Source: an uncultured Spirochaetales bacterium (lineage in GTDB: Bacteria; Spirochaetota; Spirochaetia; SPDA01; CAYXSD01). From it: a DNA stretch of 60,983 bases. Under the pieces are notes generated by a model. That model worked only from the letters and a program-made list of their open reading frames with translations, searched no databases and was not told where the DNA came from. Where the stretch lies: the NCBI GenBank assembly GCA_964466335.1, contig CAYXSD010000003.1, positions 37,450 through 98,432 on the forward strand. The letters are read 5' to 3'. The stretch's first letter is position 1. Every line of letters starts with the position of its first letter. Positions 3,727-57,185 of this stretch are shown one piece after another. The translations under genes were made by a program, and so were the position numbers.

Positions 3727-5181
3727 ATGATTAGGCTTATTAAACATATTTGTATTCTTTGTTGTTTCATCCTTTTAGTAACGGCCCTTCCCTCCTTTTC
3801 CCAGGAAATTGACACAGGCGAAGGGGAGAATGAGTCCATTGAGGAAGAAAGCAGGACTGATGAAACCCCAGATGAAATGGAAGAAGATGAGAAAGGCCCG
3901 GAATTTGCCTTTGGTCTCGATCTTGTATTGGGTGCGGAAATATTCAATATTCCCGATTCGGAGGAACAGATTACCTGGCAGAAACTGGCACTCCTTCCGG
4001 ATTTTTCCATTGGTAAGTTTGGAATCGGTATTGATCTGACACTTCATTTTCATTTTACCGGCGGTCCCGGAAATGACCAGTTCGAAGTTCGAAAGGAGGA
4101 CTGGGTACCCGATGAAAATACCTCGTTCTTGGAACTCTATCTTCCAAAGTTTCGTTATATCAGATACGGCGAAAAGGGCGACCCCCTCTATGTAAAACTA
4201 GGCTCTATAGACGACGCTGTCCTGGGAAACGGGTTTATAATGAACAACTACTCCAACACCCTCTTCCTCCCGGAAAAAAGGATTTTCGGTTTGAGCTTCG
4301 ATTTCGATGGAAAAGTTTTCTCCTTTCCCTACTTGGGGATAGAGTATTTTATCGGAAACCTCGCTGTTTTCGACATAATAGGGGGACGAATCTATACAAG
4401 GCCCTTTGCCGGGTTAGAAGTCCCGGTTATTAAGGAGCTTCAGTTAGGCGCTAGTGTTGCTGGAGACAGAGCGCCCTACCATCACTCTGAATTGGACAAT
4501 CCGGAAGCCTCTGTCCTTATTTTCGGATTTGATACTCGAATACCAATTCTATCGGGAGATATCTTTTCATTAGCCGCCTTCGGCGATATTGTGTTTCAAC
4601 CGGGTACTAGAGGCGGAATGATCGGCCTTGGTGGAAGACTATTTTCGATTGTTACCTATGGCGCCCAGATCCGCTTCTTGGGAGAGAATTTTCTCCCCAC
4701 CTATTTCGATGCCACCTATGACCTTTTCCGAGTGGATAAATACCTCATTACCACAGGAAGCGGGCAGACCATACCGCCATATACCGGATGGTACGGTTCA
4801 CTGGGTTTGTCCTTACTGGAAGACCAACTCGTCTTCCGTGTCAGCATGGACGGACCCTTTGGGTATCCCGTTGCTCACAGCATAAACGGCATTCCACCGG
4901 AAGATAATTACGTTAACTACCCCCACTTACGGGCAATCTTTCTCCTTAATCAGGATGTTATTCCAAGTTTCTTTTTCGATATAAGTTACGACAAGAAACT
5001 CATTCGAAACTTTGCCGACTTAGTCAGCCCGGAACAATCTGTTATTACCGCCAAGCTCAACTACAAAGCCGGCGCAGCGGTTATTTCCTTTATCTACTCT
5101 CTTCGTTACAATCCGGATGCCCCGGGAGAGAACTCCTGGGAAACCACTTCCGGACTGCAGACGAGTATCAGTCTTTTTTAA
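3727..5181 (+). CDS. Predicted outer-membrane beta-barrel protein, unknown family
   Basis: N-terminal signal peptide, acidic linker, amphipathic beta-strands and terminal ...TSISLF. RBS GAGGGGG upstream. Paralogous to the C-terminal domain of the next gene. Confidence 0.65.
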   Translation: MIRLIKHICILCCFILLVTALPSFSQEIDTGEGENESIEEESRTDETPDEMEEDEKGPEFAFGLDLVLGAEIFNIPDSEEQITWQKLALLPDFSIGKFGIGIDLTLHFHFTGGPGNDQFEVRKEDWVPDENTSFLELYLPKFRYIRYGEKGDPLYVKLGSIDDAVLGNGFIMNNYSNTLFLPEKRIFGLSFDFDGKVFSFPYLGIEYFIGNLAVFDIIGGRIYTRPFAGLEVPVIKELQLGASVAGDRAPYHHSELDNPEASVLIFGFDTRIPILSGDIFSLAAFGDIVFQPGTRGGMIGLGGRLFSIVTYGAQIRFLGENFLPTYFDATYDLFRVDKYLITTGSGQTIPPYTGWYGSLGLSLLEDQLVFRVSMDGPFGYPVAHSINGIPPEDNYVNYPHLRAIFLLNQDVIPSFFFDISYDKKLIRNFADLVSPEQSVITAKLNYKAGAAVISFIYSLRYNPDAPGENSWETTSGLQTSISLF

Positions 5182-5193
5182 GGAGGACCTCAT

Positions 5194-7455: not shown

Positions 7456-7469
7456 ATACACTGTACTGC

Positions 7470-39250: not shown

Positions 39251-40519
39251 TTACACCACCTTTTCCCTCAGCCTGGTGAGGCGGTCTGCTAGGAGGCGGG
39301 CCAAAAAAATGCCGTAGTGGGGGTTCTCCTTAACTACTGAGAGAAATTCATCGCGGGAAATTTTAATAAGCACACTTTTCCCGGAGGAGATGACCGTAGC
39401 TGAACGTTTGTCATCCCGAAGAAAGGACATCTCTCCGAGGAAAATGTCATCCGCTGTTAGGGTGGAAAGATGCTTCTTTCCACCCATTACTCTGAATCTA
39501 CCGGAAACGATGTAGTATAGATTGTTTGACTCTTCTCCTTCGCGAAAAACGATTTGGTTATTCTTAAAGGTTATTTCCTTCTGTTTCTCAAACGCCTGGG
39601 GAATTTTAACCTTTTCATTTTCGTTGTGCTGGAAATCAAAGGATACCTGATTTCCCCGGCTATTGTATCGAACGTTACTAGCGTAAAAACCGGCCATTTT
39701 AATTCCATGACCATGCAGTTCAAGACGTTTCGCCGGAGAGGAGGGATCTAGGTACATCTTCCAGTTAAAGCCGTTTCCCTCATCTTGAATAGTAAAAGAA
39801 GATTTTCTAGGGGTAATTTTATAAGAGAAATAGACTCTCTTTTTTCGTACTGTTTGCAACTTATTTTTTTCCCGTATTAGATCGATGATATTGCCCCTCT
39901 CTTCTAACCAGGCAGTTTTTTCATCATAACTAATAACACAATTACCATGTTCAATGGCATTCATTAAGAGTTCATGAATTGCCACATGAAGACGTTCGCG
40001 GTTATCATTATTAGTGTAGTTACAGTTATAGAGATAGTTGGTAACCAGGTTTGTATATGTCCTTACATCTAAAGGATCATTTTCCATGGTAAAGGTCCCT
40101 GTTATTGTCTTCATAAAACTGGTGTGAAGGTTCCGCTGGAAGAGAAAGCGTCTATTCTTTTTTATAATTCGCAGTACTCGTGGAAGGTCTTTTTCTAATT
40201 CACTGTAAGTGATAATACTGATTATATTTGACCCTCGCATCCATTCTATTAGCTCTTTCTCATAATCTGATGTATAGAGACCTAAAACACCACCGTAGTG
40301 TAACCAGGTATCATTTTTTATCTCCTCTAAAATTGAATGAGAAGCTTCACTTCCAAAGTTAATAATGCTTAGTTCGGGCATTTCAAATTTTATGTAGTCG
40401 AGAAAGACATCCTTATCCCGGACAAATACCGGCCGAAAAAATCCCCCGTTTTTTTTCGCCTCTCCTTGAATGATCTCTTTAATGCTTCCTTCGACGTTGA
40501 ATACAGGTACTTTTTTCAT
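39251..40519 (-). CDS. Pseudo-receiver + RsbW-like HATPase + cyclic-nucleotide-binding domain protein
   Basis: HELLMNAIEHGN, IQDEGNGF, HGHGI; C-terminal FREGEESNNLYYIVSG..FLGEMSFL..RSATV. Confidence 0.8.
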   Translation of the reverse strand: MKKVPVFNVEGSIKEIIQGEAKKNGGFFRPVFVRDKDVFLDYIKFEMPELSIINFGSEASHSILEEIKNDTWLHYGGVLGLYTSDYEKELIEWMRGSNIISIITYSELEKDLPRVLRIIKKNRRFLFQRNLHTSFMKTITGTFTMENDPLDVRTYTNLVTNYLYNCNYTNNDNRERLHVAIHELLMNAIEHGNCVISYDEKTAWLEERGNIIDLIREKNKLQTVRKKRVYFSYKITPRKSSFTIQDEGNGFNWKMYLDPSSPAKRLELHGHGIKMAGFYASNVRYNSRGNQVSFDFQHNENEKVKIPQAFEKQKEITFKNNQIVFREGEESNNLYYIVSGRFRVMGGKKHLSTLTADDIFLGEMSFLRDDKRSATVISSGKSVLIKISRDEFLSVVKENPHYGIFLARLLADRLTRLREKVV

Positions 40520-40596
40520 ACGTAATTACTTTATCGGTTCAGCTACTTTCAAAATTAGTTGACTTTGTAAGAAAACAATCATCCGCTAACCTACGC

Positions 40597-41799: not shown

Positions 41800-42246
41800 T
41801 TAGGGTCGTTTTAGAGAATTATCACGTTTCCTTCCGAATAGTGCAAGAAAAAGGAAGAAAATGCATCCAAGACTTATAGAAAGAGTACGAAACAGTTCTT
41901 CATTAGCGTTATACTGTAGTTCTCCTTTTATATTTCTTCCAACTGAATAAAAACTCTCCTCTTTCTTATATCCTTCAGGACGAATAATACCCTCATCCTC
42001 TTCGTAGTACCCAAGAACCCGGGCATTTAAAGTTACCTTCTCTGGACTCTCCTGGAGTGCTGTAAGCTCATCCTTAAGTTCCAGATTGTGTTTCTTTAGC
42101 TCAGATACGTTTTTCGCCAGTTTTTCTCTGTGGGAAATTAGTTTTTCAGTAGCATAAATACCGGTATTCCCAAAGCCAATATCCAGCAAAGTGTAGAGGG
42201 AAAAACCAATATATATGGCGACAGCAAGACGCAGAAGGGTCCTCAT
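41800..42246 (-). CDS. Septum formation initiator (FtsB/DivIC-like)
   Basis: TM, FGNTG, coiled coil, ARVLGYYEEDE; extra C-terminal TM. Confidence 0.75.
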   Translation of the reverse strand: MRTLLRLAVAIYIGFSLYTLLDIGFGNTGIYATEKLISHREKLAKNVSELKKHNLELKDELTALQESPEKVTLNARVLGYYEEDEGIIRPEGYKKEESFYSVGRNIKGELQYNANEELFRTLSISLGCIFFLFLALFGRKRDNSLKRP

Positions 42247-42357: not shown

Positions 42358-42547
42358 TATTAGAGAAATCTAAAGATAGAACCGCATTCAAATCACTAAT
42401 TCTTATATTGGTTGATTTGAGAGCAGCTGTACTATTTATACCATTTTAGGGGGTACGCTAGATCATCTTCTTAGATATTGCGAATTCTTACGTTTTGCGA
42501 TATATTCTATTCAGAGATGTGTGTAATGCTAATGAGGCAGAAAGTGA

Positions 42548-42575
42548 TCAATTGTTCCCTGCTATCTTCCGATAA
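42548..42575 (+). promoter_or_regulatory. Candidate sigma28 (FliA) promoter
   Basis: TCAA-N16-TCCGATAA, 36 nt upstream of ATG 42612. Confidence 0.5.
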
Positions 42576-42611
42576 AGACACTAGTGAAAAGTACTTTTTC
42601 AGGAGCAAATA

Positions 42612-45503
42612 ATGGCCTCAGAAGAAAAAAACAACGCCGCAACCAACAATGACGTATCCCTGGATGAATTCGATTTCGAGGACTTCGAACCCGAAACAAT
42701 GGATAACTCTGAGGAAGATATTGAGCAGTACGGTGTCTGGGTAAAGTCAGGTCCCGAAGATATTGATATGGTTACCCCTCCTTCTTCTGAAGAAATTGAA
42801 GCGGATTTTGACACCTTGGAAAACGCGACCATCCTTACTGAAGAAGAAGAGGCCCTTCTTGCCGATCTTGAAGAGGAAGCACCGGATGAGGAAGAAGTCA
42901 TTAGTGATATAGAATCCATGGAAGTACCGAAAGAAGAGGAAACAACAGCTGAAAAAGAAGAATTTGATCTTGCAGGACCGGATTCTATTGAAGGGGACAA
43001 AGATGCGGAGGATGAATTAGAAAATCTCGATGAATTTGAAATAGAAGACTTTGATGGTTCTCCGGATATAGAATCCGACATGGAGGAACTCTCCCTGGAA
43101 GATGAATCAACTGAAAGAACGGAGGAAGAAGAACTTACATTGGGAAGTTCTGAAGACGAACTTCATATTCCCGAGGAAATTGACTCTGTTTCCGAATCTG
43201 CCGATGAAGACTTAGAAGACCTTGACGATTTTGATATCCCCGACCTTGAGGGAGAAGAGGATATCGATATAGGACCCACAGATACTGAGACCCTTGAAAC
43301 ATCTTTCACATCGGAGGAAGAGGACGACCTCATTGAAATCCCCCTTGGAGAGGCTAAAGACGAGGAAAATGATGAATTAGAGCCTACTGAATTATCAGAA
43401 GAGTCAGAAGAAGCACCTGCGGAAGAAGTTCAGAAAGCCGAAGATAGTTTAGAAGAGATTGATATTGAAGAATTGCAAGAATCTGATTACGGCGAGGAAC
43501 TCCCTGAACTTGCTATAGATGATTTGGAAGAAGAGAATGCTCCTCTTCTCGAAATTGAAGATGAAGACGAAGCTATAGAGGATGATCTATCTTCCTCCTT
43601 AGAAGAAGATATCGCAGTTGAAGAAATCGAAGAACTTGAAGGAGATGAAGATATTTTATCGGAGTCTTCAGATGATGATGAAATGATATCCCCCATACCT
43701 GAGGCCTCCATTGAGGAGTCTACTATCGAAGAAGAACCATCAGAACCTGATAGCGCCCCCATACCCGGCGAATCATCTTCTGATAATTCTTCAGGAATCC
43801 TTACAAAAATCGAAGCAGAGCTTCATTCTATAAAAGATGAACTCTCCTCTTTAAAATCTGAGCTCTCGACACTTCGAGATATAAAAACAAAAGATACTGT
43901 TGAAAAAGAACATAAGGTTGAAGATACGGAAGAAGAAGGTGCGGGAGGATTCTTTGAGGAGGAAGAAGATGAAACCATTGCTCTCACCGGAGATGAATTA
44001 GATAATATACTCAACACCGCTGATGTAAAAGAAGAAACTGGAGAAGCAGAATCTCTCGACGAAGATGAAGAAACTCTCACCGATGATGAGCTCGATAATA
44101 TTTTAGAAACCGCAGATTTTGATCAAAAAGAAGGAAAATCAGAAGACGTTGAAGAAGATTCAACAATAACAGATCAAACCAAGCATGATGCAGAAGAAAC
44201 TGATGAGGATGAAACGCTAACCTTAGATGGACTTAACAACATCATTCAAACTTCGGATTTCGATGAACAACACGCGGCTTTAGAAGCACCTGAAGAACTT
44301 GAAGATGAAATAACACTTGAAGGACCTGAAGAACTCTCAGATAGGGAAGATATTATCGACCTCGAAGATAATGAGGAAATTAAAGAGCCGGGACCTTCTT
44401 TTGAAGATGTGGAAGAAAATAACAATCTTATTGATGCTATCGATGAAGTTTCTTCTGAAGCTGAGGAACAAACACCTGAACCGGAGGACCATGTTTCAGT
44501 AGAAACGACTGAGGATGAAGATACTTTGGAATTTGAAACTGATATTTCAGATACTGACATCTCAGACACTGCTACATCCGATGAAGAGGAAGGACTTGAT
44601 ATAATTACCGAACATGAAGAACCTCTTAAAGAAGATGTAGAGGATTACGAACTTTCCATTGAAGACGAAGAAGCACAAGGAGAGGATGAAAGAGGCACCG
44701 ATGAATTATCTCTCTCAGATGAACATGAATTAATAATCGATGATGCAGCATACAACGATAGTTCTGAGTCATCCACAGAGCAGGAAGAAACGCTTTACTC
44801 TGATTTGAATGAGGGGGATGAAATTGAAATTGATGTACCTGAAATCGAGGAGATAGAGACTGATCAGATACCAGATGAACCTGTTTCTCAAGAACCGGAA
44901 TTAGATATTGAAGAACCAAAATCGGAAGACCAACCTTCAGAAGAAGTAGAACTTTCTTATGAAGAAGAAATAGTACCTGAAGAAGAGATAGTACCTGGTA
45001 TTGAAGAAGAAGGTGAGTTAGAAGAAGACCTTCCTGAAGATTTTCAGATAGAAGAAGACATAGAAGAGACCGCCATAGATGAACCTCTTGAAGAAATTGC
45101 TATAGAAGAACCTATAGAAGATGAAGAAGAGATCTTCCAAGAAGAAGATCATAAAGATTCAGAAGGAATAACCATAGATTCTACAGAAATTATTGAAGAG
45201 ACAAGCATAGAAGAACCCCTGTCGGAAGTTACTGTTTCTGAGGAACCAATAGATACAATTGAAACTGAATCTATGGATGAATCAGTAGAGATAGAAGATA
45301 CCTATAAAAGTTCCAAACCAGCGGAGGATACAGAAACAAAAGAATCTCAGATACCAGAAGAACTGAAATCTGAAATTAAATCTGTGCTTAGTTATATGGA
45401 CCAGTTATTAGAGTCCCTTCCTGAAGAGAAAATTGAAGAATTTGCAAAATCCGAGCACTTTGAAGTCTATAAAAAATTATTTGAAGAACTTGGTTTAAAA
45501 TAA
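42612..45503 (+). CDS. Very acidic, largely disordered protein with helical islands
   Basis: D/E-dominated sequence; EQYGVWVKSGP near the N-terminus; central coiled coil; three LTxDxLxNI repeats; folded C-terminal EIKSVLSYMDQLLESLPEEKIEEFA..YKKLFEELG. RBS AGGAG. Confidence 0.85.
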   Translation: MASEEKNNAATNNDVSLDEFDFEDFEPETMDNSEEDIEQYGVWVKSGPEDIDMVTPPSSEEIEADFDTLENATILTEEEEALLADLEEEAPDEEEVISDIESMEVPKEEETTAEKEEFDLAGPDSIEGDKDAEDELENLDEFEIEDFDGSPDIESDMEELSLEDESTERTEEEELTLGSSEDELHIPEEIDSVSESADEDLEDLDDFDIPDLEGEEDIDIGPTDTETLETSFTSEEEDDLIEIPLGEAKDEENDELEPTELSEESEEAPAEEVQKAEDSLEEIDIEELQESDYGEELPELAIDDLEEENAPLLEIEDEDEAIEDDLSSSLEEDIAVEEIEELEGDEDILSESSDDDEMISPIPEASIEESTIEEEPSEPDSAPIPGESSSDNSSGILTKIEAELHSIKDELSSLKSELSTLRDIKTKDTVEKEHKVEDTEEEGAGGFFEEEEDETIALTGDELDNILNTADVKEETGEAESLDEDEETLTDDELDNILETADFDQKEGKSEDVEEDSTITDQTKHDAEETDEDETLTLDGLNNIIQTSDFDEQHAALEAPEELEDEITLEGPEELSDREDIIDLEDNEEIKEPGPSFEDVEENNNLIDAIDEVSSEAEEQTPEPEDHVSVETTEDEDTLEFETDISDTDISDTATSDEEEGLDIITEHEEPLKEDVEDYELSIEDEEAQGEDERGTDELSLSDEHELIIDDAAYNDSSESSTEQEETLYSDLNEGDEIEIDVPEIEEIETDQIPDEPVSQEPELDIEEPKSEDQPSEEVELSYEEEIVPEEEIVPGIEEEGELEEDLPEDFQIEEDIEETAIDEPLEEIAIEEPIEDEEEIFQEEDHKDSEGITIDSTEIIEETSIEEPLSEVTVSEEPIDTIETESMDESVEIEDTYKSSKPAEDTETKESQIPEELKSEIKSVLSYMDQLLESLPEEKIEEFAKSEHFEVYKKLFEELGLK

Positions 45504-45507
45504 TAAA

Positions 45508-46638
45508 ATGGGATTGTTAGACATAGCACTTACTCTACACGATGATGACGCCCCAATAAATAAGGGACTCTTCTATAAGGCTTCACAGGTCAAAATAAAT
45601 CCTTTAGAACTAATCGAAAACACTATTTTACTCCAAAAATCTGCCATAACATTTACTGGAGATGGCCATAGAGAGACTGAGGATAGTACCGAAACCAATC
45701 AAAATGAATTCTTTATCAATCGCGAATTATTTTCGACAAAATTGGAAGAGTTCCCATCGAATGCGGATACACCTTTATATTTGTTTTCATTCCTTAAGAA
45801 GGAATTGGGTATTGAGAAAGGATCCCTTTTACTTCTCGATCCTGAAAAAAAAGTATATTTTCCTTGGGCTATTACCGGATATGATGAAACGACCAATCAT
45901 AGATTACGCATTCCCTACGAATTATTACAATTAATACTTACTACAGAAGAAGAGCCTGTTTTTATTCTTTCCACTCTTAATAATGATACTAAACAAGAAA
46001 AAATAAAAAAGTATTTCAGTTTGAGAGAGTTTTCCGTACTTGAACGTCTACTTTTTTTGCCTTTAGAGATTAACGATGAAGTTTTCGGTCTGCTTATAGC
46101 TACATCTGCAAAATCTTTTTCTTCTGAAGACGAACTTCTCAATCTACTCAAAGAGAATCAGGAAAAAATATCAAACATTATCTATCAAAGTAGAGCTGAC
46201 CATCTTTTTTCCACTTCGGTTTCCTCATTAAAAGAAAAAGATGAGGCCATTACTACAGTATCCCATTTAATAGCTACCCTGCCGCATAATTCTACAGGCT
46301 TAGTACTTTTCGTATTCGATTTAAACAAAATTATTAAACAAATTCTTAAAAACAACGAAGATGCAGATTCTTTAAGAATTCGCGAAGATGTGCTTAGGAT
46401 CTTAACACCCATGATCAGTGAAAATGGGTCTATCGTTACTTTGGATACTCTTCAATTACTCATTGTTATACCAAAATCCCGATTACGGCGAAATGATCTT
46501 TTTGCTCATCAAATAGCTTCAGCTATAAAGGGATACTTTTCTCTTCCAAATAGTGCCCCAAATCCTATTTCACATATAAAAGCTTTTCCGGATGATGGGA
46601 CAAACGCTGAAGAACTTCTCTCGGATATTTTAAACTAA
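45508..46638 (+). CDS. GAF-like plus degenerate GGDEF-like domain protein
   Basis: GSLLLLDPEKKVYFPWAITG and LLFLPLEINDEVFGLLI (GAF-like); C-terminal FPDDGTNAEELL. Confidence 0.55.
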   Translation: MGLLDIALTLHDDDAPINKGLFYKASQVKINPLELIENTILLQKSAITFTGDGHRETEDSTETNQNEFFINRELFSTKLEEFPSNADTPLYLFSFLKKELGIEKGSLLLLDPEKKVYFPWAITGYDETTNHRLRIPYELLQLILTTEEEPVFILSTLNNDTKQEKIKKYFSLREFSVLERLLFLPLEINDEVFGLLIATSAKSFSSEDELLNLLKENQEKISNIIYQSRADHLFSTSVSSLKEKDEAITTVSHLIATLPHNSTGLVLFVFDLNKIIKQILKNNEDADSLRIREDVLRILTPMISENGSIVTLDTLQLLIVIPKSRLRRNDLFAHQIASAIKGYFSLPNSAPNPISHIKAFPDDGTNAEELLSDILN

Positions 46639-46642
46639 TTAT

Positions 46643-48265
46643 ATGAAAGAAGTTTCACTTCGTACTGCCCGTAACGGAAGCACAATAGCTTTTTTAAACG
46701 GCGTAAGACTTCAATCTCCATACGATCCTCAAAAAGAAGCTGAAAAATTTATTTATCTTCAAACCTCTGGAACTGTACCTAATACAATTATTTTTTTTGG
46801 TTGTTCATTAGGATACCTTCCTTTAACTGCTCGAAAATTATTTCCCCAGACAAAGATTATCGCTTTATTTCTTACTGACATTTTTTATGAGCAATCAAAA
46901 AATATTCTTCATAACAAAAATATCATTTCTTGGTCCGAAAAATCCCATGGTTTGCTTACGTCTTTTTTATCTGAACACTTGTTTGAAACTGATATTCCAC
47001 ATCTTCTTTTTCTTTCGTGGCCTGCTGCCACAGAGGCTTTACCCAACTATTTTAGGAATATTTCTTCAGTTGTAAAAAGTATAATACAACAACATAACGG
47101 GAGTTTAAAAACGACCAAGGTTTTTGGTAAGCGCTGGATTAAGAATGTACTTAACAATTTTATAAATAACCGAATGTATGCGGGTTTATCTGCCATTGAA
47201 AAACCTATACTTGTTACCGCTTCCGGCCCATCCCTCAATGAAACATTGCCCTTAGTAATATCTCATCGAAAAAAATTTTGTCTTATTGCTCTACCCTCCT
47301 CTCTTAAAGCATTACAATATTATTCCATCTATCCTGATTTTGTTATCACTACAGATCCAGGTTTTTGGGCAGGCCAACATCTATATTCTCTCCATCCTTC
47401 TTCTGTATTAGTAGCACCTCTTTCCGCACAACTTCACCATTTTAACAATGATAATCCTATTGCCTTAATTTCTGATGGTGTTCCGGGCGAAAAGAACTGT
47501 ATATTTCATGAGAGACTCCCATACATTTCTCTTCCTCCTAACGGCACTGTTGCGGGAACCGCGTTAGAATTTTCCTTTTACTATACGAATAACTCTATTT
47601 TTTTCCTTGGCTTCGATCTAGCAGTACGAGATATACAAGGGCATGTAATTCCTCATCCTTTTGATTTACACTTGTGTCTTTCTACATACCGGTACCATCC
47701 ACTTCAATATGAGTATTTTGAACGGGCGCTTTTATTCTATCCGGATCGCATGAAATCGAAATACTATAGAACTTCTAAAAGCCTTGAAACGTATGCTAAT
47801 TGGTTTCGTAGGAATTCGAATCGTTGGAAAAAACGTATTTACAGGGTCGGATTTTCTCCAGTTTCGCTGCCGAATATTCCTTTTATTGATAATAAAGAAT
47901 TTACAGAGATACTCTCTGATATTCCTGTACCGACAAAAGAGGAACAAAATTGCAAGAAAGAGTACAGTATTTTTCCACTATCTTCCAAACGAAATCAAAG
48001 AGTGGAATTTGTAACCTCGCTTCTTAATTCGTGGATTAAAAAAATTGAAAATGAAAAAAATATTTTTTTTTACAAAGAACAGTATCTTCCCATAGACCCA
48101 ATAATTAAAGAATTATTTAAGTATATAGTAACTCAAGATTATATAGATTCCAAAAATCTTCTCTTAGTAAGAGGTAGAAAAAAATGGGAAGACTATTTTT
48201 TTTCTTCCCTTAGCCGTCTTAAAATGGAACTAACTTCATTAAGGGGTATGATTACGGATGTATAA
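46643..48265 (+). CDS. Motility accessory factor (Maf/DUF115, MptE-like) 1
   Basis: LQSPYDPQKEA, TASGPSL, TTDPG, GTVAGTAL, FLGFDL. Confidence 0.8.
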   Translation: MKEVSLRTARNGSTIAFLNGVRLQSPYDPQKEAEKFIYLQTSGTVPNTIIFFGCSLGYLPLTARKLFPQTKIIALFLTDIFYEQSKNILHNKNIISWSEKSHGLLTSFLSEHLFETDIPHLLFLSWPAATEALPNYFRNISSVVKSIIQQHNGSLKTTKVFGKRWIKNVLNNFINNRMYAGLSAIEKPILVTASGPSLNETLPLVISHRKKFCLIALPSSLKALQYYSIYPDFVITTDPGFWAGQHLYSLHPSSVLVAPLSAQLHHFNNDNPIALISDGVPGEKNCIFHERLPYISLPPNGTVAGTALEFSFYYTNNSIFFLGFDLAVRDIQGHVIPHPFDLHLCLSTYRYHPLQYEYFERALLFYPDRMKSKYYRTSKSLETYANWFRRNSNRWKKRIYRVGFSPVSLPNIPFIDNKEFTEILSDIPVPTKEEQNCKKEYSIFPLSSKRNQRVEFVTSLLNSWIKKIENEKNIFFYKEQYLPIDPIIKELFKYIVTQDYIDSKNLLLVRGRKKWEDYFFSSLSRLKMELTSLRGMITDV

Positions 48266-49925
48266 TCGACACCTTTTCGAAAAAAATCTCCTCGCTCTCT
48301 CATCTCGGCATCCTCAACTTGCAAAGTCCGCAGCCACTGTAACCCCTTCAAAATTCTCAAGCGTGTGTACAAGTCGGACCGGTCTTCCCGTTCCTTTTAT
48401 TGAAAAGGGTGGTCGACAATATCCTTTGCACTCTACTTTCGATCCATTAAAAGAGTCTAAACGCTTATACCAACAAAATCCTAAGGAACATTTTCTTATA
48501 TTTTTTGGTCTAGGCGGTGGATACCATATCGCACCTTACCTAGAAAATAAAAATGTTTCTTATGCTATTATCATTGAAAGAGAAATATCTCATTTCGCTT
48601 TTTTGCTTTCTGTCATCAATTTTCACAATCTATTTTTGGATCCCAGGGTTTTTCTTCTTGTTGACGTTAATGAAGATGAGATTAAAGAGGTAATTATTTC
48701 GAAATATGTTCCTCCAATTACCGGTGATATCTCTACTGTAAGTCTCCGCTCTCAACTTGTTCATGATGAACCATATTTTTTACGTATTACCCAGGGGATA
48801 AAAGAGGCATTGAATGAAGTCTCTGATGATTATACGGTACAGACTCATTTTGGAAAAACCTGGTTTAAGAATACTATTGTTAATTTAGCAACGGCAGAAA
48901 AATCTTATCCCTCTTTAGGCCCTGTAAGGAAAGCAATAATTACCGGGGCCGGTCCTTCATTGGAAATGCAGATACCGACATTACTAAAGAAAAAAGAAGA
49001 ATCTACTCTTATAGCTACTGATACTTCCCTTCCAGCCCTTTTAGAACAGAACATTTTGCCGGATATCGTCATATCCATCGATTGTCAGCATATTTCATAT
49101 CATCACTTTATCTCAGGTTTACCGAAAGATATCCCCCTAATATTAGATTTAGCAAGCCCTCCTGTTTTAACAAGACTCACCAAGAACCCGGTTTTTTTCT
49201 CCAGTGGACATCCTTTTTCCCGCTATGTTAGTACTCATTGGCGTCCCTTTCCCACTATTGACACATCGGGAGGCAATGTAAGTCATGCTGCTATTTCATT
49301 AGCAGATTTTCTTGGAGCAAAGGAAATATATCTTTTCGGACTAGACTTCTCTTTCCCGCAAGGGAAATCCTATGCCAGGGGCACATATCTATATAAAATG
49401 TTTGGCAGTATTTCAAACAGAACTAGTCCGGAAGAATCCCTATTTTTTCAATTTCTTTTAAGAAATGAAAATATAACTCTCGAAAAAAAAGACGACTACA
49501 TCATTTACACAACGAAACCAATGATAAGCTATAAGGAACGTCTGGAAAAAGCAGCTTCCTCTTTAAGCAGCAATCTTGTCCCGCAACATGGAATGGGAGT
49601 ACCTCTTAATATCGATACCAATCGACTTGTGGGCAGACCACAAAACAAAAAGACTCTTTTCGCGGCAGGCAAAGCTAACATGACAGCAAAAAGTTTTTTG
49701 GAATCTTATAAACAGAAAATTCAATCTCTATCAACACCCTACCACCCTTTCGCAAAATATTTTCAAGGTTTAGGAGATACAGAAAAAGAATTGTGGTTTA
49801 CGATGTTTCCGGCGACAGCAAAAATACGAAAAGAAACCGGCCCCTTAGAAGGAATAGAAATCCTTGACCAGGTTAGAAATTGGTCTCTTGAAGTTCTTAA
49901 GCATACGATTTCATCTCTTTACTGA
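48258..49925 (+). CDS. Motility accessory factor (Maf/DUF115, MptE-like) 2
   Basis: LHSTFDPLKE, FGLGGGYH, GAGPSL, ATDTS, SIDCQ, GGNVSHAA, LFGLDFS. Confidence 0.85.
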   Translation: MYNRHLFEKNLLALSSRHPQLAKSAATVTPSKFSSVCTSRTGLPVPFIEKGGRQYPLHSTFDPLKESKRLYQQNPKEHFLIFFGLGGGYHIAPYLENKNVSYAIIIEREISHFAFLLSVINFHNLFLDPRVFLLVDVNEDEIKEVIISKYVPPITGDISTVSLRSQLVHDEPYFLRITQGIKEALNEVSDDYTVQTHFGKTWFKNTIVNLATAEKSYPSLGPVRKAIITGAGPSLEMQIPTLLKKKEESTLIATDTSLPALLEQNILPDIVISIDCQHISYHHFISGLPKDIPLILDLASPPVLTRLTKNPVFFSSGHPFSRYVSTHWRPFPTIDTSGGNVSHAAISLADFLGAKEIYLFGLDFSFPQGKSYARGTYLYKMFGSISNRTSPEESLFFQFLLRNENITLEKKDDYIIYTTKPMISYKERLEKAASSLSSNLVPQHGMGVPLNIDTNRLVGRPQNKKTLFAAGKANMTAKSFLESYKQKIQSLSTPYHPFAKYFQGLGDTEKELWFTMFPATAKIRKETGPLEGIEILDQVRNWSLEVLKHTISSLY

Positions 49926-49929
49926 TCCT

Positions 49930-50763
49930 TTAGTTGTCTGTATAAATAATCCCTGCATACCCAACAAAGCTATCAGCTTGATGGATATCCAAACTTGTTT
50001 TGTAAGCAAGAAGCTTACCCTTTTCCAGGCCCTTAGAACGTGCAAAGATAAGCGCTGTAATAGCAGCTCCAACAGAACATGCTGCCCTATCCTCTACTCC
50101 TCTCGCTAAAGCTACTTTCTCATTCATATTTACTAGAGCTTCTATAATTCTTCTATCGTTATTTTCACGTACCCAGTTTTCAGCTTCAACACCGGTCCCT
50201 TTCGGATAGAATCCGTAATTGGGTCCATAATGGGTAAGGTCTGTTGATCCTAGTACTATTATTTGTCTATTTAGTTCTTTTGCTGTTTCTGCCAAAGCCG
50301 TTCCCAGTTCTGAAGCTTTTAGCCCCTGCTCAACCCTAAGGCAAAGAACTCTTTTATCAGGATAAAGATAGTGTACCATAGGTACCACCGATTCGACGGT
50401 ATTGTCAGCCGAAGTATCCGAGGAAAGGGTCAACCGTTTTTCAACTTTTTGAGAGAATTCTTTGTCGCTTTTTACTATTCCCGTAGGCGTTTCCCAACCC
50501 TCATGTGTGTCCAAGAGAATGCCTCCATTTTTTGGCATGTGTCCTCCCACAACTACTACTGTTTCTATTTCAGGGGGTATTCTTCTTACAACATCGTATG
50601 TTATATCTCCGCTAAATACCCATCCTGCATGAGGAACAATTCCGGCAGTAATATTTTTCTCAGCTTCTACCATGTTGTTCTGCCATGATGATATCATTGC
50701 GGACATCTCATTTTCGTTATCTGGATACCAACCTCTGGGCAAGATCCTTCTTCTAATATTCAT
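49930..50763 (-). CDS. amrB: MEMO1/AmmeMemoRadiSam protein B
   Basis: GWYP, IVPHAGWVFSG, WETPTG, DNTVE, GSTDLTHYG, FVGYAGI. Confidence 0.85.
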   Translation of the reverse strand: MNIRRRILPRGWYPDNENEMSAMISSWQNNMVEAEKNITAGIVPHAGWVFSGDITYDVVRRIPPEIETVVVVGGHMPKNGGILLDTHEGWETPTGIVKSDKEFSQKVEKRLTLSSDTSADNTVESVVPMVHYLYPDKRVLCLRVEQGLKASELGTALAETAKELNRQIIVLGSTDLTHYGPNYGFYPKGTGVEAENWVRENNDRRIIEALVNMNEKVALARGVEDRAACSVGAAITALIFARSKGLEKGKLLAYKTSLDIHQADSFVGYAGIIYTDN

Positions 50764-50904: not shown

Positions 50905-52101
50905 ATGAAGGTGCGAAGTTTTTCCATTTATGTTTTTCTTAGTATTATAGTAATCATTGCAATTTTACTCTCGTCTTTTATGCGATACTATAATAAAAAG
51001 AGCAATGTTGAAAAAATTGCTCGTGAATCCTTTGAATCGGTAAAAAATACTCTTTCTTCAGCTTATTTAGCATCTGGAAGTTTTGAGGCCCCTTTTTTCA
51101 GCGAAGAAGTTAAACAGGTTTTTAAGAAAACCAATAATTTGCGTGTTGTAGCCCTGTATACAGAAAAGAGCGGTATTGAATATCTTTACGCAATTACGCC
51201 GCGTTATTTAGTGGCGGTACCGGATCCTTAGACTGAATGGACCCCCTGGAGCTCCTATAGACTCCCAACCTTAATGGATAACCTTTTTTTTTTGTCTCTT
51301 TCTCTTCCTAATGGTGAATCTTATAGAATTGATGGTGTGTATACCCTTATTTCGCAAACAGCTCTTTTTCAGATTATTCGCGACAGCTTCCTGCTATTAA
51401 TTCTTTTTTTACTATTCTCACTCTCATTCAACCTTCTTTTTTTAAGATCTAAGCGGGCACTTCCTGACCTAGAGCGCCATGAAAAAGATAGTAAAGAGTC
51501 ATCTGACCTCCAGAGCCACACTCCTGCCCTTGGGTCCACAGCTGAAGGCTTTTCAAAAATAACCTCATCTTCTATTTCAGATTCGAGTATTGGTCAATGT
51601 GAGAACAAAGACAGGCCGGAAATGAAAGGGGGGTTGTCTTATATAAAACAGCGACTCAGCTTTGAACTCGAACGCGCTGCCTCTTTCGATCAAGATCTTA
51701 CCTTGGTAGTTTTGGAATGTGTGGAAGACTGCGGAACAAAAGAGATCTACAATAACATCGGCAGCACTTTGGCTGAAACCATTAGCTTTCAGGATTTAAT
51801 TTTCGAATGTGGAAAAAAGGGATTTGCCATTATTATCCCAAATGTTGATTTAGATACTACTATAAAGGACCTTGAACTTTTTCAGAAAAAAATTACTGAA
51901 AAGAACGATAAACCCAGCAACCTGCGCTTTGGTGTAAGTTCAAGAAACGGGCGACTCATTCGTTCAGATCTTCTCCTGAAAGAAAGTCTCCTGGCGCTAA
52001 GAAAGGCCAAAAATGAGAAAGGACCTCATATAGTGGGTTTCAGAAGTGATCCGGAAAAATACAGAAACTATATTACGAACCACGAAACTGCCAAAGGTTA
52101 A
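50905..52101 (+). pseudogene. Two-TM membrane protein with degenerate GGDEF domain, interrupted by one in-frame TAG at 51229-51231
   Basis: ORFs 50905-51231 and 51274-52101 are in the same frame with 14 sense codons between them. The joined product has TM-periplasmic-TM-GGDEF-like architecture. Confidence 0.65.
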
Positions 52102-53087: not shown

Positions 53088-55595
53088 TTAATTCAGAATA
53101 GGCTCAGGGGCCTTTTTCTCCTGTTTTTTTTCTCTGCTTTTTAAGCGGAAGGATAATTTTCCGCTTCGTACCCCTATGCCAATGGTATCGCCGGAAACAA
53201 ATCTTCCCTTTAGGATTTCCACAGATAGAGGATCTTCAAGATCTTTTTGTATTACCCGCCTTAAAGGGCGTGCTCCGTACTTAGCTTCGTATCCATGCCC
53301 AATGATGTACTCTTTTGCTTGTCGACTAACATCCATGAGCATGTTCATCTCATGCAGCCTTTCCATTACCTCTTCCAACATAATCTCAACAATAATTTTT
53401 AGCTGTTCGTGGTTGAGACTGTGAAACACCACGATTTCATCGACTCGGTTAATGAATTCCGGTCTAAATAGGCGTTTGAGTTCATTCATAGCAGAGGATT
53501 TTATGTCAGCGTAACTCATGAAACCATCTTGCGCTTTAAACCCCACATTACTGCTATGAGAAATCTCTCTGGCGCCGGCGTTAGAGGTCATTATAAGTAT
53601 AGTATTTCGAAAGGAGACTTTATGTCCAAGATTGTCCTGAAGCTCGCCTTCCTCTAACACCTGAAGAAGCATATTAAAAACGTCAGGGTGGGCCTTCTCA
53701 ATTTCGTCTAAAAGCACAACACTGTATGGTCTTCTTCGTATTTTCTCTGTTAACAGTCCTCCTTCTTCATAACCAACATACCCGGGAGGCGCGCCGACAA
53801 GACGAGAAACGTTATGCTTCTCCATAAAGTCGCTCATGTCTATTCTCACCAGAGCATCTTCGTCTCCGAAGAGGAATTCTGCCAGTGTTTTTGCGAGGAG
53901 AGACTTACCCACACCAGTAGGCCCAAGAAAAACGAAAGAACCCATCGGCCTTTTTGGCGAATTTAGTCCTATTCTGCTCCGCCGAATCGAAGAAGCAACC
54001 GCTACAATAGCCTGGTCTTGACCGATGACTGTTCTATGTAGTTCTTCTTCAATATGTAGGAGCTTCTGAGATTCGCTCTCCGCCAAACGGGACAGAGGAA
54101 TCCCTGTAATATTGGAAATAACCAACTGTATATCGTGGGAGTCCACGATGTTTTTTTCATTCCTTAGAGAGATCTTCCAGTCATTTTTCATCTCCTCCAC
54201 CCGTTCCTTTAACTGACGTACAGTGTCTCGGATGGCTGCCGCTTTTTCATAGTTTTGGCTGTTTACCAACGCCATTTTTTCGCCTGTTAGGTCCTCAATT
54301 TCTTTCTCCAATTCGGCAAGTTCCTTCGGTCTTACACTGTTATGTATTCTCTTCCTAGAACCTGCCTCATCTATAAGATCTATCGCCTTGTCAGGTAGAA
54401 AGCGGTCAGAAACATACCTATGGGAAAGGTGTACAGCTAACTCCAATGCACCAGGGGTGTAGGTAACATTGTGATGTTCCTCATACCTTAATTTTATCCC
54501 CTCTAAGATTCTAAGACTTTCCGCGGCATTCGGCTGGTCTACATAAATCATCTGGAAACGGCGCTCTAAGGCTGCGTCCTTTTCAATGTACTTCTTATAC
54601 TCATTTAACGTTGTAGCACCTATGCACTGTAATTCACCCCTTGATAGAGCAGGTTTTAGCATATTCGAGGCATCGATGGCTCCTTCAGCGCCTCCTGCCC
54701 CTATAATAGTGTGGAGTTCATCTATGAAAAGAATGATATTCTTAGCGGTAACAATCTCTTTCATTACTCGCTTTAATCGTTCTTCGAATTCACCACGGTA
54801 CTTCGTCCCCGCGATAAGAGATGCCAGATCCAGAGTCATTACCCGTTTACCCATAAGTACCTCGGGGGCGCTTCCATCTACAATCTTTTGGGCCAAACCC
54901 TCCACTATTGCTGTCTTTCCTACACCTGGTTCACCTATGAGGACAGGATTGTTTTTTGTGCGGCGAGCTAAAATTTGTATTACCCTCTGTATTTCGTTTT
55001 CTCTACCAATAACAGGATCAAGCTTTTTCTGCCGCGCGTAATCCGTTAAATCCCGTGAAAACTCATCTACCGTTGGAGTGGTCTTTTTTGCTCCCCCACT
55101 GTGGACCTTGCGTTTCTGTTGATACGGCTGCTGACTTTGGCCTTCTTTCGGTGGAGAAGAGCCGCTAACCTCAACAATTGCCGCTCTAATATCTTCTACA
55201 CTGACATTATGCCGTTTTAGAACCCGGTCTACTACGCTGCCGTCTTCCTTAGCCGCCGCCAAAAGTAGATGTTCCGTACCGATATATTCATGCCCTAAAC
55301 TTCTTGCTTCTTCCGCGGAACCTTCCAGGACTTTTTTTCCCCGCTTTGAAGGGGGAACATCGCCCAGGACAAAGCCCCCAGTCTTTTTAGTTATGCTTTC
55401 CTCCACCTCCAGCTGCATTTCCGCCGGATCAATATGTAGCTTTGTTACTATTTTATATCCTAAACCCCCGCCGTCTTTCATAATCGCGAGAATGATATGC
55501 TCAGGCAACAACTGATCTGAATGGAAACGTTTTGCTTCCTGTTGTGCCAGTATTGTCAATATTCTCTGTGCTCTCTGTGTCAAGCCTTTGAACAT
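53088..55595 (-). CDS. clpC: ClpC AAA+ chaperone
   Basis: Clp N-domain, GEPGVGKT and GPTGVGKS Walker A motifs, UVR-like M domain. Confidence 0.93.
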   Translation of the reverse strand: MFKGLTQRAQRILTILAQQEAKRFHSDQLLPEHIILAIMKDGGGLGYKIVTKLHIDPAEMQLEVEESITKKTGGFVLGDVPPSKRGKKVLEGSAEEARSLGHEYIGTEHLLLAAAKEDGSVVDRVLKRHNVSVEDIRAAIVEVSGSSPPKEGQSQQPYQQKRKVHSGGAKKTTPTVDEFSRDLTDYARQKKLDPVIGRENEIQRVIQILARRTKNNPVLIGEPGVGKTAIVEGLAQKIVDGSAPEVLMGKRVMTLDLASLIAGTKYRGEFEERLKRVMKEIVTAKNIILFIDELHTIIGAGGAEGAIDASNMLKPALSRGELQCIGATTLNEYKKYIEKDAALERRFQMIYVDQPNAAESLRILEGIKLRYEEHHNVTYTPGALELAVHLSHRYVSDRFLPDKAIDLIDEAGSRKRIHNSVRPKELAELEKEIEDLTGEKMALVNSQNYEKAAAIRDTVRQLKERVEEMKNDWKISLRNEKNIVDSHDIQLVISNITGIPLSRLAESESQKLLHIEEELHRTVIGQDQAIVAVASSIRRSRIGLNSPKRPMGSFVFLGPTGVGKSLLAKTLAEFLFGDEDALVRIDMSDFMEKHNVSRLVGAPPGYVGYEEGGLLTEKIRRRPYSVVLLDEIEKAHPDVFNMLLQVLEEGELQDNLGHKVSFRNTILIMTSNAGAREISHSSNVGFKAQDGFMSYADIKSSAMNELKRLFRPEFINRVDEIVVFHSLNHEQLKIIVEIMLEEVMERLHEMNMLMDVSRQAKEYIIGHGYEAKYGARPLRRVIQKDLEDPLSVEILKGRFVSGDTIGIGVRSGKLSFRLKSREKKQEKKAPEPILN

Positions 55596-55606
55596 TTATT
55601 CCTCCA

Positions 55607-56668
55607 TTATATATTACAGGACATTAGGGTATCTCTCACCACCTGTGCCCTCACATAGTCTATATATTTACTATCGGCACCCATTTCTTTACTGCTTATC
55701 CTCTTTTGTATGTGCGACTTCTGAGTTCTAAACAGAAGAGATGTCAGCAGCTCAATCGGCACTTTCAGCCAACCCAGGGCCGATCCCAATCTAAGAGAAG
55801 AAATAAGCTCTATTGCCTCTCGAGCGGGCAGATAACGGCAATATTTTAAGATTCCCACCGCACGGAATATTCGATCTTCCGTATCCACCCTTCTCTTTTC
55901 AATCATCTCTTCTCTTGCCCTTCTCTCATAATGTACTATCTGTTTGGTAATATTTTCAAGTTTTTCTATAATTTCTTTTTCAGAAATCCCGATTGTAGTT
56001 TGACTAGAGATCTGGTACATATCCCCTAAGGAATTCTCAGCATCACTAAAGAACCCCTTCACTGTCAGCCCAACCTGTACAACAGCTTTGAATGTTTTCT
56101 CAATCAACCCTGATTCTACCAGCGCGGGTAGATGAAGCATTACAGAACTTCTTAAACCGGTACCACTATTAGTTACTTCCGTATTTAGATACCCCAATTC
56201 AAAATTTACCGCGTAATCCATGTGTTCTTCCAATTCTCTATCTAAGGTGTCCAATTCCTCATATCCTCTTTGGAAACTTCCTCCCCCGTGTATTGCTGTC
56301 AACCTAAGATGGTCGATTTCATTTATCAACACCGAAAGTGTTTGATTGTCATTGAAAATTATTGCATTGTCCGATTTAAGCGAATACTCCTGACTTATTA
56401 TGTTTCTCTCTAACAGCATTTTTCTCTGGGAGGGCGAAAGTTGAGATAGAAGAAAGCGGTTATACAAGTTTTCTTTTGATATTTTATCAAATATCTCTAT
56501 TACTTCGTCCCTGAGTAGACGCTCTTCCTCTTTTTTCATCATTCCGGGAAAAGGATATCCTTGAAGATTTCTAGAGAGTCGTATCCTCGAAGCTAAGGCA
56601 ACATCGTTATCTTGTCCTGCTTCAAAAAACCAGCCTGTACCGTCTCCCAGGACATCATTGCTCACCAT
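55607..56668 (-). CDS. mcsB: McsB-family ATP:guanido phosphotransferase, catalytic residues altered
   Basis: SRIRLSRNL, GTGLRSSVMLHLPAL, YQIS; located between mcsA and clpC. Confidence 0.88.
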   Translation of the reverse strand: MVSNDVLGDGTGWFFEAGQDNDVALASRIRLSRNLQGYPFPGMMKKEEERLLRDEVIEIFDKISKENLYNRFLLSQLSPSQRKMLLERNIISQEYSLKSDNAIIFNDNQTLSVLINEIDHLRLTAIHGGGSFQRGYEELDTLDRELEEHMDYAVNFELGYLNTEVTNSGTGLRSSVMLHLPALVESGLIEKTFKAVVQVGLTVKGFFSDAENSLGDMYQISSQTTIGISEKEIIEKLENITKQIVHYERRAREEMIEKRRVDTEDRIFRAVGILKYCRYLPAREAIELISSLRLGSALGWLKVPIELLTSLLFRTQKSHIQKRISSKEMGADSKYIDYVRAQVVRDTLMSCNI

Positions 56669-57185
56669 GATTTTCCTCCGCTGCTTTCTCGAGCTCGTTT
56701 ATTCTGTCCCTTAAGTCTGCCGCTGTTTCGTAATCTTCTTCTTGGATCGCCCTTTGCAATTTTTCCTTTAACTGCTCCTTATCAACTAAGAGTTTCTTAT
56801 ATGCCAAGAGTTTTTTAGGATATTTCCCTCTATGCCGCGGAGCAGCTGTAATATTAGACAATATAGACATTATTGCCTCATGGAAACTATTATAACACTC
56901 TGCACACCCTACCTTTCCCTCTTTTCGAAAGTCCTGATATGTCATGCCGCAATTCGGACATTGGTCTAAATTCTTTTTATCTGTCAGTGGACTGTTGGCA
57001 TCTAAAAGTCCTGTGAGCAGCTCTGACAGTGAAAGCTCTATAGACTCGTTCTTACTTATAATACCTTTTTCATGAGCACAGACCTCGCAGAGATGAAGAT
57101 CAATAATTTCATTTCCCATAATCTGCTGAACATGAATAACAGCGTCTCGTTCCTTGCATATTTCACATTTTTTCTGCTCTTCCAT
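56655..57185 (-). CDS. mcsA: McsA (UvrB/UvrC motif zinc protein)
   Basis: Four CxxC motifs, HRGKYP, C-terminal UVR (EEDYETAADLRD). Confidence 0.92.
   Translation of the reverse strand: MEEQKKCEICKERDAVIHVQQIMGNEIIDLHLCEVCAHEKGIISKNESIELSLSELLTGLLDANSPLTDKKNLDQCPNCGMTYQDFRKEGKVGCAECYNSFHEAIMSILSNITAAPRHRGKYPKKLLAYKKLLVDKEQLKEKLQRAIQEEDYETAADLRDRINELEKAAEENHGEQ

Follow-up and report, generated by a model that had tools for sequence, protein, structure and literature searches.

A hyper-acidic TP_0179-family protein at the head of a Maf operon in spirochaetes: a candidate scaffold of late flagellar assembly and flagellin modification

The locus and its operon

The subject of this study is a gene for an extremely acidic protein of 963 amino acids (aa), assigned to the TP_0179 family (Pfam PF27359) and proposed here as a candidate scaffold for the late steps of flagellar assembly and for modifying flagellin. 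It is located in a 60,983-nucleotide (nt) stretch of DNA from an uncultured Spirochaetales bacterium (GenBank assembly GCA_964466335.1, contig CAYXSD010000003.1, positions 37,450–98,432 of the forward strand). This whole stretch is referred to below as the window, and all coordinates are window positions unless one of the relatives (L079, L080, L081 or P0121) is named. The acidic gene stands first in an apparent operon (Table 1), in which it is followed by genes for a GAF-domain protein and for two Maf proteins; the first two junctions are gaps of 4 nt each, and the third is an overlap of 8 nt. No convincing plus-strand terminator was detected between the operon genes, and sigma-70-like sites are not enriched.

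The same arrangement recurs across the relatives of the acidic gene, with a maf gene found downstream of it in 62 out of the 62 loci that extend at least 2.5 kb on that side. The unbiased clustering of all open reading frames (ORFs) in the collected loci returned the same set of neighbors, namely Maf (64 loci), the orphan GAF gene (40 + 19 loci), a gene of ~400 aa (49 loci) and a divergent DivIC gene (46 loci). The Maf proteins are themselves only 25–50% identical from locus to locus. Judging by gene order and domain content, the acidic protein, the GAF protein, the two Mafs and a degenerate-GGDEF protein (the ~400-aa gene) form a conserved five-gene module of spirochaetes. A first-pass annotation, produced by a model from the DNA letters and their translations, had described the acidic gene as divergent from an ftsB-like gene and upstream of maf genes, and both neighbors could be confirmed (a DivIC/FtsB-like protein with a PF04977 match and the two Maf proteins).

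Table 1. Features of the acidic gene, its promoter and its neighbors (window positions)
Feature	Position	Strand	Evidence and remarks
Putative sigma-28 (FliA)-type promoter	42548..42575	+	-35 TCAA (42548-42551), N16, -10 TCCGATAA (42568-42575)
Ribosome-binding site AGGAG	42601..42605	+	sequence; 6 nt before ATG
Coding sequence, 963-aa hyper-acidic protein, Pfam PF27359 (TP_0179 family)	42612..45503	+	ORF, ATG start
Island 1, aa 37-48, IEQYGVWVKSGP, YGVWVK motif	42720..42755	+	conservation 0.83
Island 2, aa 75-88, LTEEEEALLADLEE, short amphipathic helix	42834..42875	+	conservation 0.57; helix pLDDT ~60
Acidic disordered tract 1, aa 89-390	42876..43781	+	pLDDT < 50
Island 3, aa 391-430, leucine-zipper coiled coil	43782..43901	+	single helix, pLDDT 81-95; conservation 0.69
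Island 4, aa 445-476, GGFFEEEEDETIALTGDELDNILNTADVKEET, family-wide near-invariant motif	43944..44039	+	conservation 0.87, highest in the protein
Repeat 2, aa 487-503, ETLTDDELDNILETADF, lineage-specific extra copy of island-4 motif	44070..44120	+	100% conserved in L080
Repeat 3, aa 534-550, ETLTLDGLNNIIQTSDF, degenerating extra copy	44211..44261	+	62% identity to L080
Acidic disordered tract 2, aa 554-911, most variable part	44271..45344	+	pLDDT < 50; in-frame indels between strains
Island 5, aa 912-962, C-terminal three-helix module (PF27359 TP_0179 domain)	45345..45497	+	helices 916-935, 938-946, 948-959, pLDDT 79-90
Operon gene 2, 376-aa GAF-domain orphan	45508..46638	+	4-nt gap to acidic gene; ~59 loci
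Operon gene 3, Maf-family (MptE-like) putative flagellin nonulosonic-acid glycosyltransferase	46643..48265	+	PF01973 4.5e-19
Operon gene 4, second Maf-family glycosyltransferase (Maf_flag10_N + MptE-like; PseD-like)	48258..49925	+	PF01973 2e-33, PF20157 5.7e-8
Fifth neighbor, membrane-anchored degenerate-GGDEF protein	50905..52101	+	after maf pair in 49 loci
DivIC/FtsB-like gene, divergent, outside operon	41800..42246	-	PF04977 1.1e-7; upstream on minus strand in 46 loci

A sigma-28-type promoter

An element TCAA-N16-TCCGATAA, which ends 36 nt before the ATG of the acidic gene, fits the sigma-28 promoter form TAAA/TCAA-N15-16-GCCGATAA. The strict version of this pattern (T[ACT]A[AT]-N14-17-[GTA]CCGAT[AT][AT], within 200 nt upstream) is present upstream of 34 of the 61 orthologues examined, as compared with 10 among the 856 other ORFs with 150 aa or more in the same loci (1.2%), 3 of 61 antisense strands and 0.006 matches per shuffled region. 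The ten hits in the background set of ORFs mostly lie 10–11 nt from the ATG or represent one locus counted three times, and two of them precede the degenerate-GGDEF gene by 53–56 nt. In L019 and L053 this gene is preceded by a sigma-28-like promoter of its own. Of 60 loci, 43 have a CCGAT[AT][AT] element within the 250 nt that lie upstream. A promoter of the same form as the one in the window was mapped by RLM-RACE in front of flaB2 in Treponema denticola (-35 TTAA, -10 CCGATAA), a species in which both FliA and FlgM are present (PMC9481697).

Metatranscriptome contigs from the same kind of microbial mat cover positions 42598–42821, 43965–44158 and 45944–46150. The first of them starts 23 nt past the -10 element, a position that fits (albeit does not prove) the predicted start site. 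The first-pass annotation had linked the acidic protein with motility, and this link is strengthened by the sigma-28-type promoter and by the invariable synteny with maf.

Two further observations concern the same kind of sequence. A strain variant (run X4) has 87 nt of the intergenic DNA between divIC and the acidic gene (42379–42467) swapped for GGCCG, with the 42548–42575 element left intact. An element TAAT-N15-ACCGATAA on the minus strand at ~40530–40557 is conserved in both L079 and L080. Its end lies 11 nt upstream of the ATG of a gene for a cNMP-binding/HATPase_c_2 (anti-sigma-kinase-like) protein (39251–40519), which is too near the start codon for a normal promoter.

Acidic tracts and conserved islands

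The acidic protein, whose M-A start is conserved in homologues, contains 27.7% E and 13.2% D (41% D+E) and only 3.7% K+R; its net charge is -358. For the remaining 45 ORFs of the window, the means are 13.8 ± 3.6% D+E and 12.1% K+R, which makes the acidic protein an outlier by 7.6 standard deviations (z = 7.6). Since these neighboring proteins are quite ordinary, a salt-adapted (halophile) proteome was rejected as the cause of its acidity. The longest run free of D and E is only 10 residues (QYGVWVKSGP). No transmembrane (TM) segment is expected, as the maximum Kyte-Doolittle hydropathy over 19 residues is 0.17, and the acidic N-terminus does not resemble a signal peptide. AlphaFold2 modeling, based on an alignment of 121 sequences, gave a predicted local distance difference test score (pLDDT) below 50 for 843 of the 963 residues. 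About 88% of the protein is thus predicted to be disordered. The confident parts of the model are the long zipper helix and the C-terminal three-helix unit (residues 916–959), with weaker helices predicted at 77–88 and 460–469. These results bear out the first-pass description of a 963-aa hyper-acidic ORF with D/E-rich tracts and with neither a TM segment nor a signal, as does the disorder prediction that it had suggested as a check.

A spurious low-complexity ORF could be rejected given the conserved islands, the occurrence in more than 500 species, the transcripts, and strain variants that differ by in-frame indels only (a metagenome variant, for example, has gained 9 nt at 44291 and lost 6 nt at 44819). 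A recent expansion of DNA tandem repeats was also considered as the source of the acidic tracts; only a few duplications of 15–27 nt are present. The full protein had no match in Pfam or NCBIfam (both at a cut-off of E ≤ 0.1, which applies to all domain searches with this protein) or in searches of PDB sequences, and Foldseek returned 0 matches in the PDB for the full model. The PDB profile searches with the C-terminal module and with the central motif yielded insignificant hits only (MICAL bMERB with E = 0.03, an aminotransferase with E = 0.44). The Pfam library used for the window proteins was without the PF27359 model, which makes the family assignment of the acidic protein indirect.

Five islands with a total of 118 residues (aa 37–48, 77–85, 397–418, 445–476 and 920–962, as delimited by conservation) stand out with a column conservation (over 121 family members) of 0.57–0.87 vs 0.20 in the rest of the protein, where the D+E content reaches 43%. 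All the islands named in the first-pass annotation were recovered in place, and their conservation is far beyond chance. In island 1, residues Y40–K45 and P48 are invariant (32 sequences), and the island is present in Treponema orthologues as well. It is unfolded in the AlphaFold model and is probably a motif that folds upon binding. Island 2 corresponds to a family consensus LTxEEExLLGxLE, its conserved residues 77–85 falling within the helix LTEEEEALLADLE. A patch within the first acidic tract (aa 283–300, D-I-D..GEELPEL) is weakly conserved, with an ExLPEL consensus visible in homologues. All of the a/d positions of the zipper in island 3 are occupied by I or L over four heptads (L397, I400, L404, I407, L411, L414, L418 and L421), with I400, L404 and L414 invariant in homologues. 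A leucine zipper of this kind implies that the protein should be oligomeric and, therefore, multivalent.

Island 4, characterized by GFF..ETIALTGDELDNILNTA, corresponds to the first of three repeats reported in the first-pass annotation (aa 454–472, 43971–44027). The entire island, with its short helix, is 100% identical in an orthologue (L080) that is 86% identical overall. All three repeats were found where they had been placed. Only the first of them turned out to be family-wide, the other two being lineage-specific copies. The central motif is single in 112 of the 121 proteins and occurs more than once in only six: three times in the window protein, twice in P0001 and P0003, and with an extra N-terminal copy in P0056, among others. 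It has been duplicated independently in some lineages, which fits selection for multivalency. The third copy is decaying in the window protein; L080 still has LTGDELDKIIH at this place. The same comparison with L080 shows how unevenly the protein evolves: the first two motif copies are 100% identical, the C-terminal module 95%, tract 1 88% and tract 2 80% (with 14 gapped positions), down to the value given for repeat 3 in Table 1.

The C-terminal module was matched in 120 of 120 homologue hits (aligning over aa 920–963). A profile search with this module and no filter retrieved 2,298 clusters (defined at 50% identity), and in all of the best 150 of these 2,298 clusters the module is located at the extreme C-terminus. 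One atypical member, P0121 (L081, 8001–8954), is a 317-aa protein composed of a non-acidic N-terminal domain and two tandem TP_0179 modules, an arrangement suggesting that the module behaves as an autonomous unit. The genomic context of P0121 is free of maf genes; a neighboring protein of 967 aa gives weak hits to Flg_new and SH3_3. As a clue from domain fusion this protein was rejected, given that its context is unrelated to maf and that its N-terminal domain is of no recognized type.

The TP_0179 family

A search among 5.8 billion proteins produced 1,455 homologues, of which the best 120 are all spirochaetal, 529–908 aa long and carry a precomputed PF27359 assignment. The genome scan revealed relatives in at least 519 species-level genomes, the genera including Treponema, Spirochaeta, Alkalispirochaeta, Sediminispirochaeta, Marispirochaeta, Oceanispirochaeta and Thalassospirochaeta. 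In the gene table of L079, the label PF27359:TP_0179 is attached to a 76-aa C-terminal fragment (93% identical to the C-terminus of the window protein), from which it follows that the PF27359 domain is the C-terminal module and that the family is named after TP0179 of Treponema pallidum. We read the window gene as the orthologue of T. pallidum TP0179. Treponema orthologues range from 700 to 1,750 aa and retain all five islands. Within the family, the window protein is extreme in both its length and its acidity (963 aa and 41% D+E vs family medians of 633 aa and 32%).

L079 is also the closest relative (a neighboring gene is 96% identical), and its acidic gene (5032–7996) is broken into ORFs of 804 and 76 aa over a region whose length is not a multiple of three, i.e. 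by a frameshift in a low-complexity gene. This frameshift probably explains the absence of near-identical full-length orthologues from the protein search.

The literature lists TP0179 only under the label "hypothetical protein" and notes that it has a tract that is recombinant and variable (PMC8789261, PMC6602244). The publications that mention it are confined to population genomics, and no functional study of the TP_0179 family was found. The family itself is already catalogued as PF27359. As far as the literature found shows, two points are new: the promoter signal for sigma-28, and the invariable place of the gene as the first of a Maf operon.

Neighboring genes

The second gene of the operon is a fast-evolving orphan with a weak Pfam GAF hit and no assigned Pfam family, for which a word search returned four homologues. 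Its AlphaFold model (pLDDT 61.6) gave Foldseek matches to GAF domains down to E = 9e-7, and the best two-domain matches were PelD and GAF-GGDEF cyclases. The protein is predicted from this model to combine a GAF domain with a second alpha/beta domain like a degenerate GGDEF, in a PelD-like layout; no GGDEF motif was found in it. Such a protein may act as a small-molecule sensor for the operon. The second of the two Maf proteins, in addition to the Pfam matches listed in Table 1, matches the NCBIfam model FlagModPseD (5.6e-22).

The fifth member of the module, a protein of ~400 aa, has an N-terminal membrane segment followed by a C-terminal domain whose profile matches GGDEF structures (E = 6e-10), with a site degenerated to FEYGxxxFAxILP. 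In the window this gene is split (50905–51231 and 51274–52101), whereas it is intact in close relatives (398 and 415 aa), which suggests either a pseudogene or a misassembly. When the profiles of the cluster's two GGDEF-like domains were compared with each other, no significant match resulted (probability 15%). Between the second maf gene and this fifth neighbor, and convergent to the former, lies a gene for a Memo / AmmeMemoRadiSam system protein B (49930–50763, minus strand), which occupies the same place in at least 21–26 related loci and has no evident link to the operon.

No flagellar or chemotaxis genes were found elsewhere in the 61-kb window, the remainder of which is of a housekeeping nature (RecO/RecJ, MutL, Lon, ClpC-McsAB, glycine cleavage, ATP-binding cassette transporters). 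The ClpC, McsB (ATP:guanido phosphotransferase) and McsA-like (UVR motif) genes form a trio at 53088–57185 on the minus strand; in general, the ClpC-McsB-McsA protein-arginine-kinase quality-control module is best known from Firmicutes. At the opposite end of the window, two ORFs of 1,195 aa (28–3615) and 484 aa (3727–5181), both on the plus strand, have no Pfam match at E ≤ 1e-5 and are followed by a gene for a FecR-domain protein.

Proposed function and its alternatives

Overall, we propose, with a probability of roughly one half, that the acidic protein acts in the cytoplasm as a scaffold, oligomeric and multivalent, for late flagellar assembly and for the modification of flagellin. According to this proposal, upon completion of the basal body sigma-28 would turn on the acidic-gene operon along with the flagellin genes. 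The acidic protein would then oligomerize via its four-heptad zipper, and perhaps also via the C-terminal module, yielding a multivalent and highly extended polyanionic tether, whose YGVWVK, LTxEEExLL and ETIALTGDELDNILNTA motifs would dock, together with the C-terminal module, conserved flagellar partners. The acidic tracts would serve as spacers keeping the assembly soluble and extended, and the scaffold would bring flagellin, before its export, together with the Mafs and with the co-encoded regulators of GAF and GGDEF-like type. Given that the motifs are near-invariant and the Mafs only 25–50% identical, some of the partners are expected to be highly conserved components rather than Mafs. 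The main ones would more likely be flagellin or its chaperone, or components of the export apparatus or the switch. The first-pass annotation had also suggested a hub or scaffold, modeled on the polar organizers PopZ, FimV and HubP. The general idea of a scaffold stands, with polyanionic tracts, helix-forming motifs, a zipper and a helical C-terminal module in its favor; membership in any of these three families does not.

Several considerations weigh against our proposal. None of the islands could be tied to a known binding domain by a sequence or structural match (Pfam, NCBIfam, PDB and Foldseek), and a gene order conserved in spirochaetes alone is no proof of shared function. The same disparity between near-invariant motifs and Mafs of 25–50% identity suggests that the main job of the protein may not be Maf-specific. 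The case for sigma-28 control is made by a consensus match and comparative enrichment rather than by a mapped transcription start, and the strict promoter pattern is absent in 27 of the 61 orthologues; the three short metatranscriptome contigs could include some DNA carry-over. The examined portion of the T. pallidum two-hybrid tables contains no entry for TP0179, and the protein was not reported among the filament proteins of T. denticola.

Of the alternatives, a PopZ/HubP-like polar landmark or condensate, as suggested in the first-pass annotation, which would organize the cell pole for both division and motility and would be linked with maf genes only incidentally, is in keeping with the general, PopZ-like layout of the protein (a binding motif near the N-terminus, then a disordered acidic tract, and a helical module at the C-terminus). 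The divergent divIC neighbor in 46 loci could be quoted in its support. In fact, this adjacency is the only link to division, and it amounts to shared intergenic DNA, with divIC on the opposite strand and no operon. The GGDEF-like proteins encoded alongside the acidic gene also argue for such a landmark, as HubP is known to recruit a GGDEF-domain protein. Several family members are even annotated automatically as 'FimV', a label that reflects compositional likeness. The searches revealed no LysM domain (Pfam), no FimV C-terminal motif TIGR03504 (NCBIfam) and no PopZ domain (DUF2497/PopZ; Pfam) in the acidic protein, and a TM segment is absent as well. Moreover, a sigma-28 promoter means late expression, which would be odd for a landmark needed before the structures that it recruits. 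All in all, we consider a polar landmark of this kind unlikely.

The second alternative is a regulator that binds CheY or FlhG in the manner of ChePep, with ETIALTGDELDNILNTA acting as an 'EIDAL-type' peptide (as at the N-terminus of FliM or the C-terminus of CheZ) that would hold CheY-P or FlhG near the motors. Sigma-28 control would be in keeping with such a role, the chemotaxis genes of many bacteria being sigma-28 dependent as well. The profile of the 12–15-residue motif finds its best window in E. coli FliM at the CheY-binding peptide ILSQAEIDALLN and in CheZ, likewise, at the peptide that binds CheY (ASQDQVDDLLDSL). The two alignments keep the register, at background frequencies per position of 1e-4 to 8e-4, and the motif is predicted to be helical and is multiplied in some lineages. 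On the other hand, when ranked among the best scores per ORF, these values come to no more than about the 95th percentile, and they are exceeded by that of an unrelated segment inside FliN. The hidden Markov model of the motif, when run against PDB sequences, did not retrieve FliM, FliY or CheZ even at E ≤ 10, and the comparison with FliM and CheZ was chosen after the resemblance had been noticed. The resemblance to CheY-binding peptides (of the L-S-Q-x-E-I-D-x-L-L type) is, at the level of sequence, suggestive but weak. ChePep also has a REC domain, whereas the acidic protein has a disordered N-terminus by prediction and no Pfam hit for a receiver-like (Response_reg) domain, and no che genes occur in the window or in the conserved neighborhood. 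We find a regulator of this type improbable.

Elements of both alternatives could be merged with our proposal, if the TP_0179 protein were a spirochaete-specific organizer of the flagellar pole. In this version, a sigma-28-timed, zipper-oligomerized polyanionic scaffold would dock components of the switch or of chemotaxis (CheY or FlhG by its EIDAL-like motif) and also flagellin or a chaperone by the invariant motifs, and would recruit the GAF protein, the degenerate-GGDEF protein and the Mafs by its C-terminal module. If true, second-messenger sensing, flagellin glycosylation and motor control would be physically coupled. We regard such a combination as a long shot. Finally, export of the protein itself as a late flagellar type III substrate, with an export signal at the N-terminus and a chaperone site in the C-terminal module (compare FliC/FliS and FlgK/FlgN) and with the polyanion deployed around the periplasmic flagella, would agree with the sigma-28 class of expression, an unfolded chain with a disordered N-terminus and no Sec signal peptide, and a conserved module always at the very C-terminus, but is very improbable given that the protein was not reported among purified flagellar proteins of T. 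denticola, that a zipper and several internal docking motifs better suit a cytoplasmic adaptor, and that no similarity to known export substrates was found (Pfam, NCBIfam and PDB).

The proposed scaffold would be of interest in several respects. Essentially every spirochaete of the Treponema or Spirochaeta type that was examined has a member of the TP_0179 family, and the agent of syphilis is among them. The placement of this anonymous ORF in the late flagellar regulon and at the head of a flagellin-glycosylation operon would make it a testable candidate and would provide the first testable role for the family. Motility is a virulence determinant of spirochaetes, and flagellin glycosylation is reportedly required for filament assembly in T. 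denticola; in view of the role of motility in virulence, a lineage-specific adaptor would be of real interest. The composition of the five-gene module hints at a regulated glycosylation. The family is also instructive as a natural example of an extremely acidic, disordered protein with its function residing in about 12% of its residues.

Comparison with known systems

In PopZ of Caulobacter, a short motif that binds clients at the N-terminus is joined by a disordered acidic linker to helices that form a C-terminal module, and there is no membrane anchor. Judging by the AlphaFold model of its layout, the acidic protein shares this design principle. There is no sequence relationship between the two, and the acidic protein differs in being 5–10 times longer and in having a central zipper, internal motifs and a promoter of the flagellar sigma-factor type. 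HubP and FimV (Vibrio, Shewanella, Pseudomonas) are membrane proteins in which a TM helix is combined with an N-terminal LysM domain in the periplasm and a FimV motif at the C-terminus; all of these features are absent from the acidic protein. What it has in common with them are the long acidic regions (which in HubP/FimV form a platform for flagellar and chemotaxis clients) and an association with GGDEF-domain proteins, in this case in cis.

ChePep of Helicobacter pylori is likewise a very acidic, lineage-specific and motility-linked protein. The acidic protein differs from it by having neither a REC-like domain nor a genomic link to che genes. The in-register, statistically weak resemblance of its core motif to the CheY-binding peptides of FliM-N and CheZ-C is the closest approach to this class.

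For the Maf side of our proposal, a precedent is provided by GlfM, an adjacently encoded accessory protein required by some Maf enzymes (10.1101/2023.12.03.569772). GlfM resembles the acidic protein in being encoded next to maf and in being helical, and it is a precedent for an adaptor that lets Maf-2 engage flagellin (10.1101/2023.12.03.569772). It is an 89-residue four-helix bundle without disordered tracts, as compared with 963 residues and a 45-residue three-helix module, and the two are set apart by size and fold description rather than by sequence comparison. The closest known relatives of the acidic protein are the other members of the TP_0179 family, including those of Treponema, with which it shares the C-terminal module, YGVWVK, the zipper and the ETIALTGDELDNILNTA motif, and from which it differs by a longer and more acidic chain with two extra copies of this motif.

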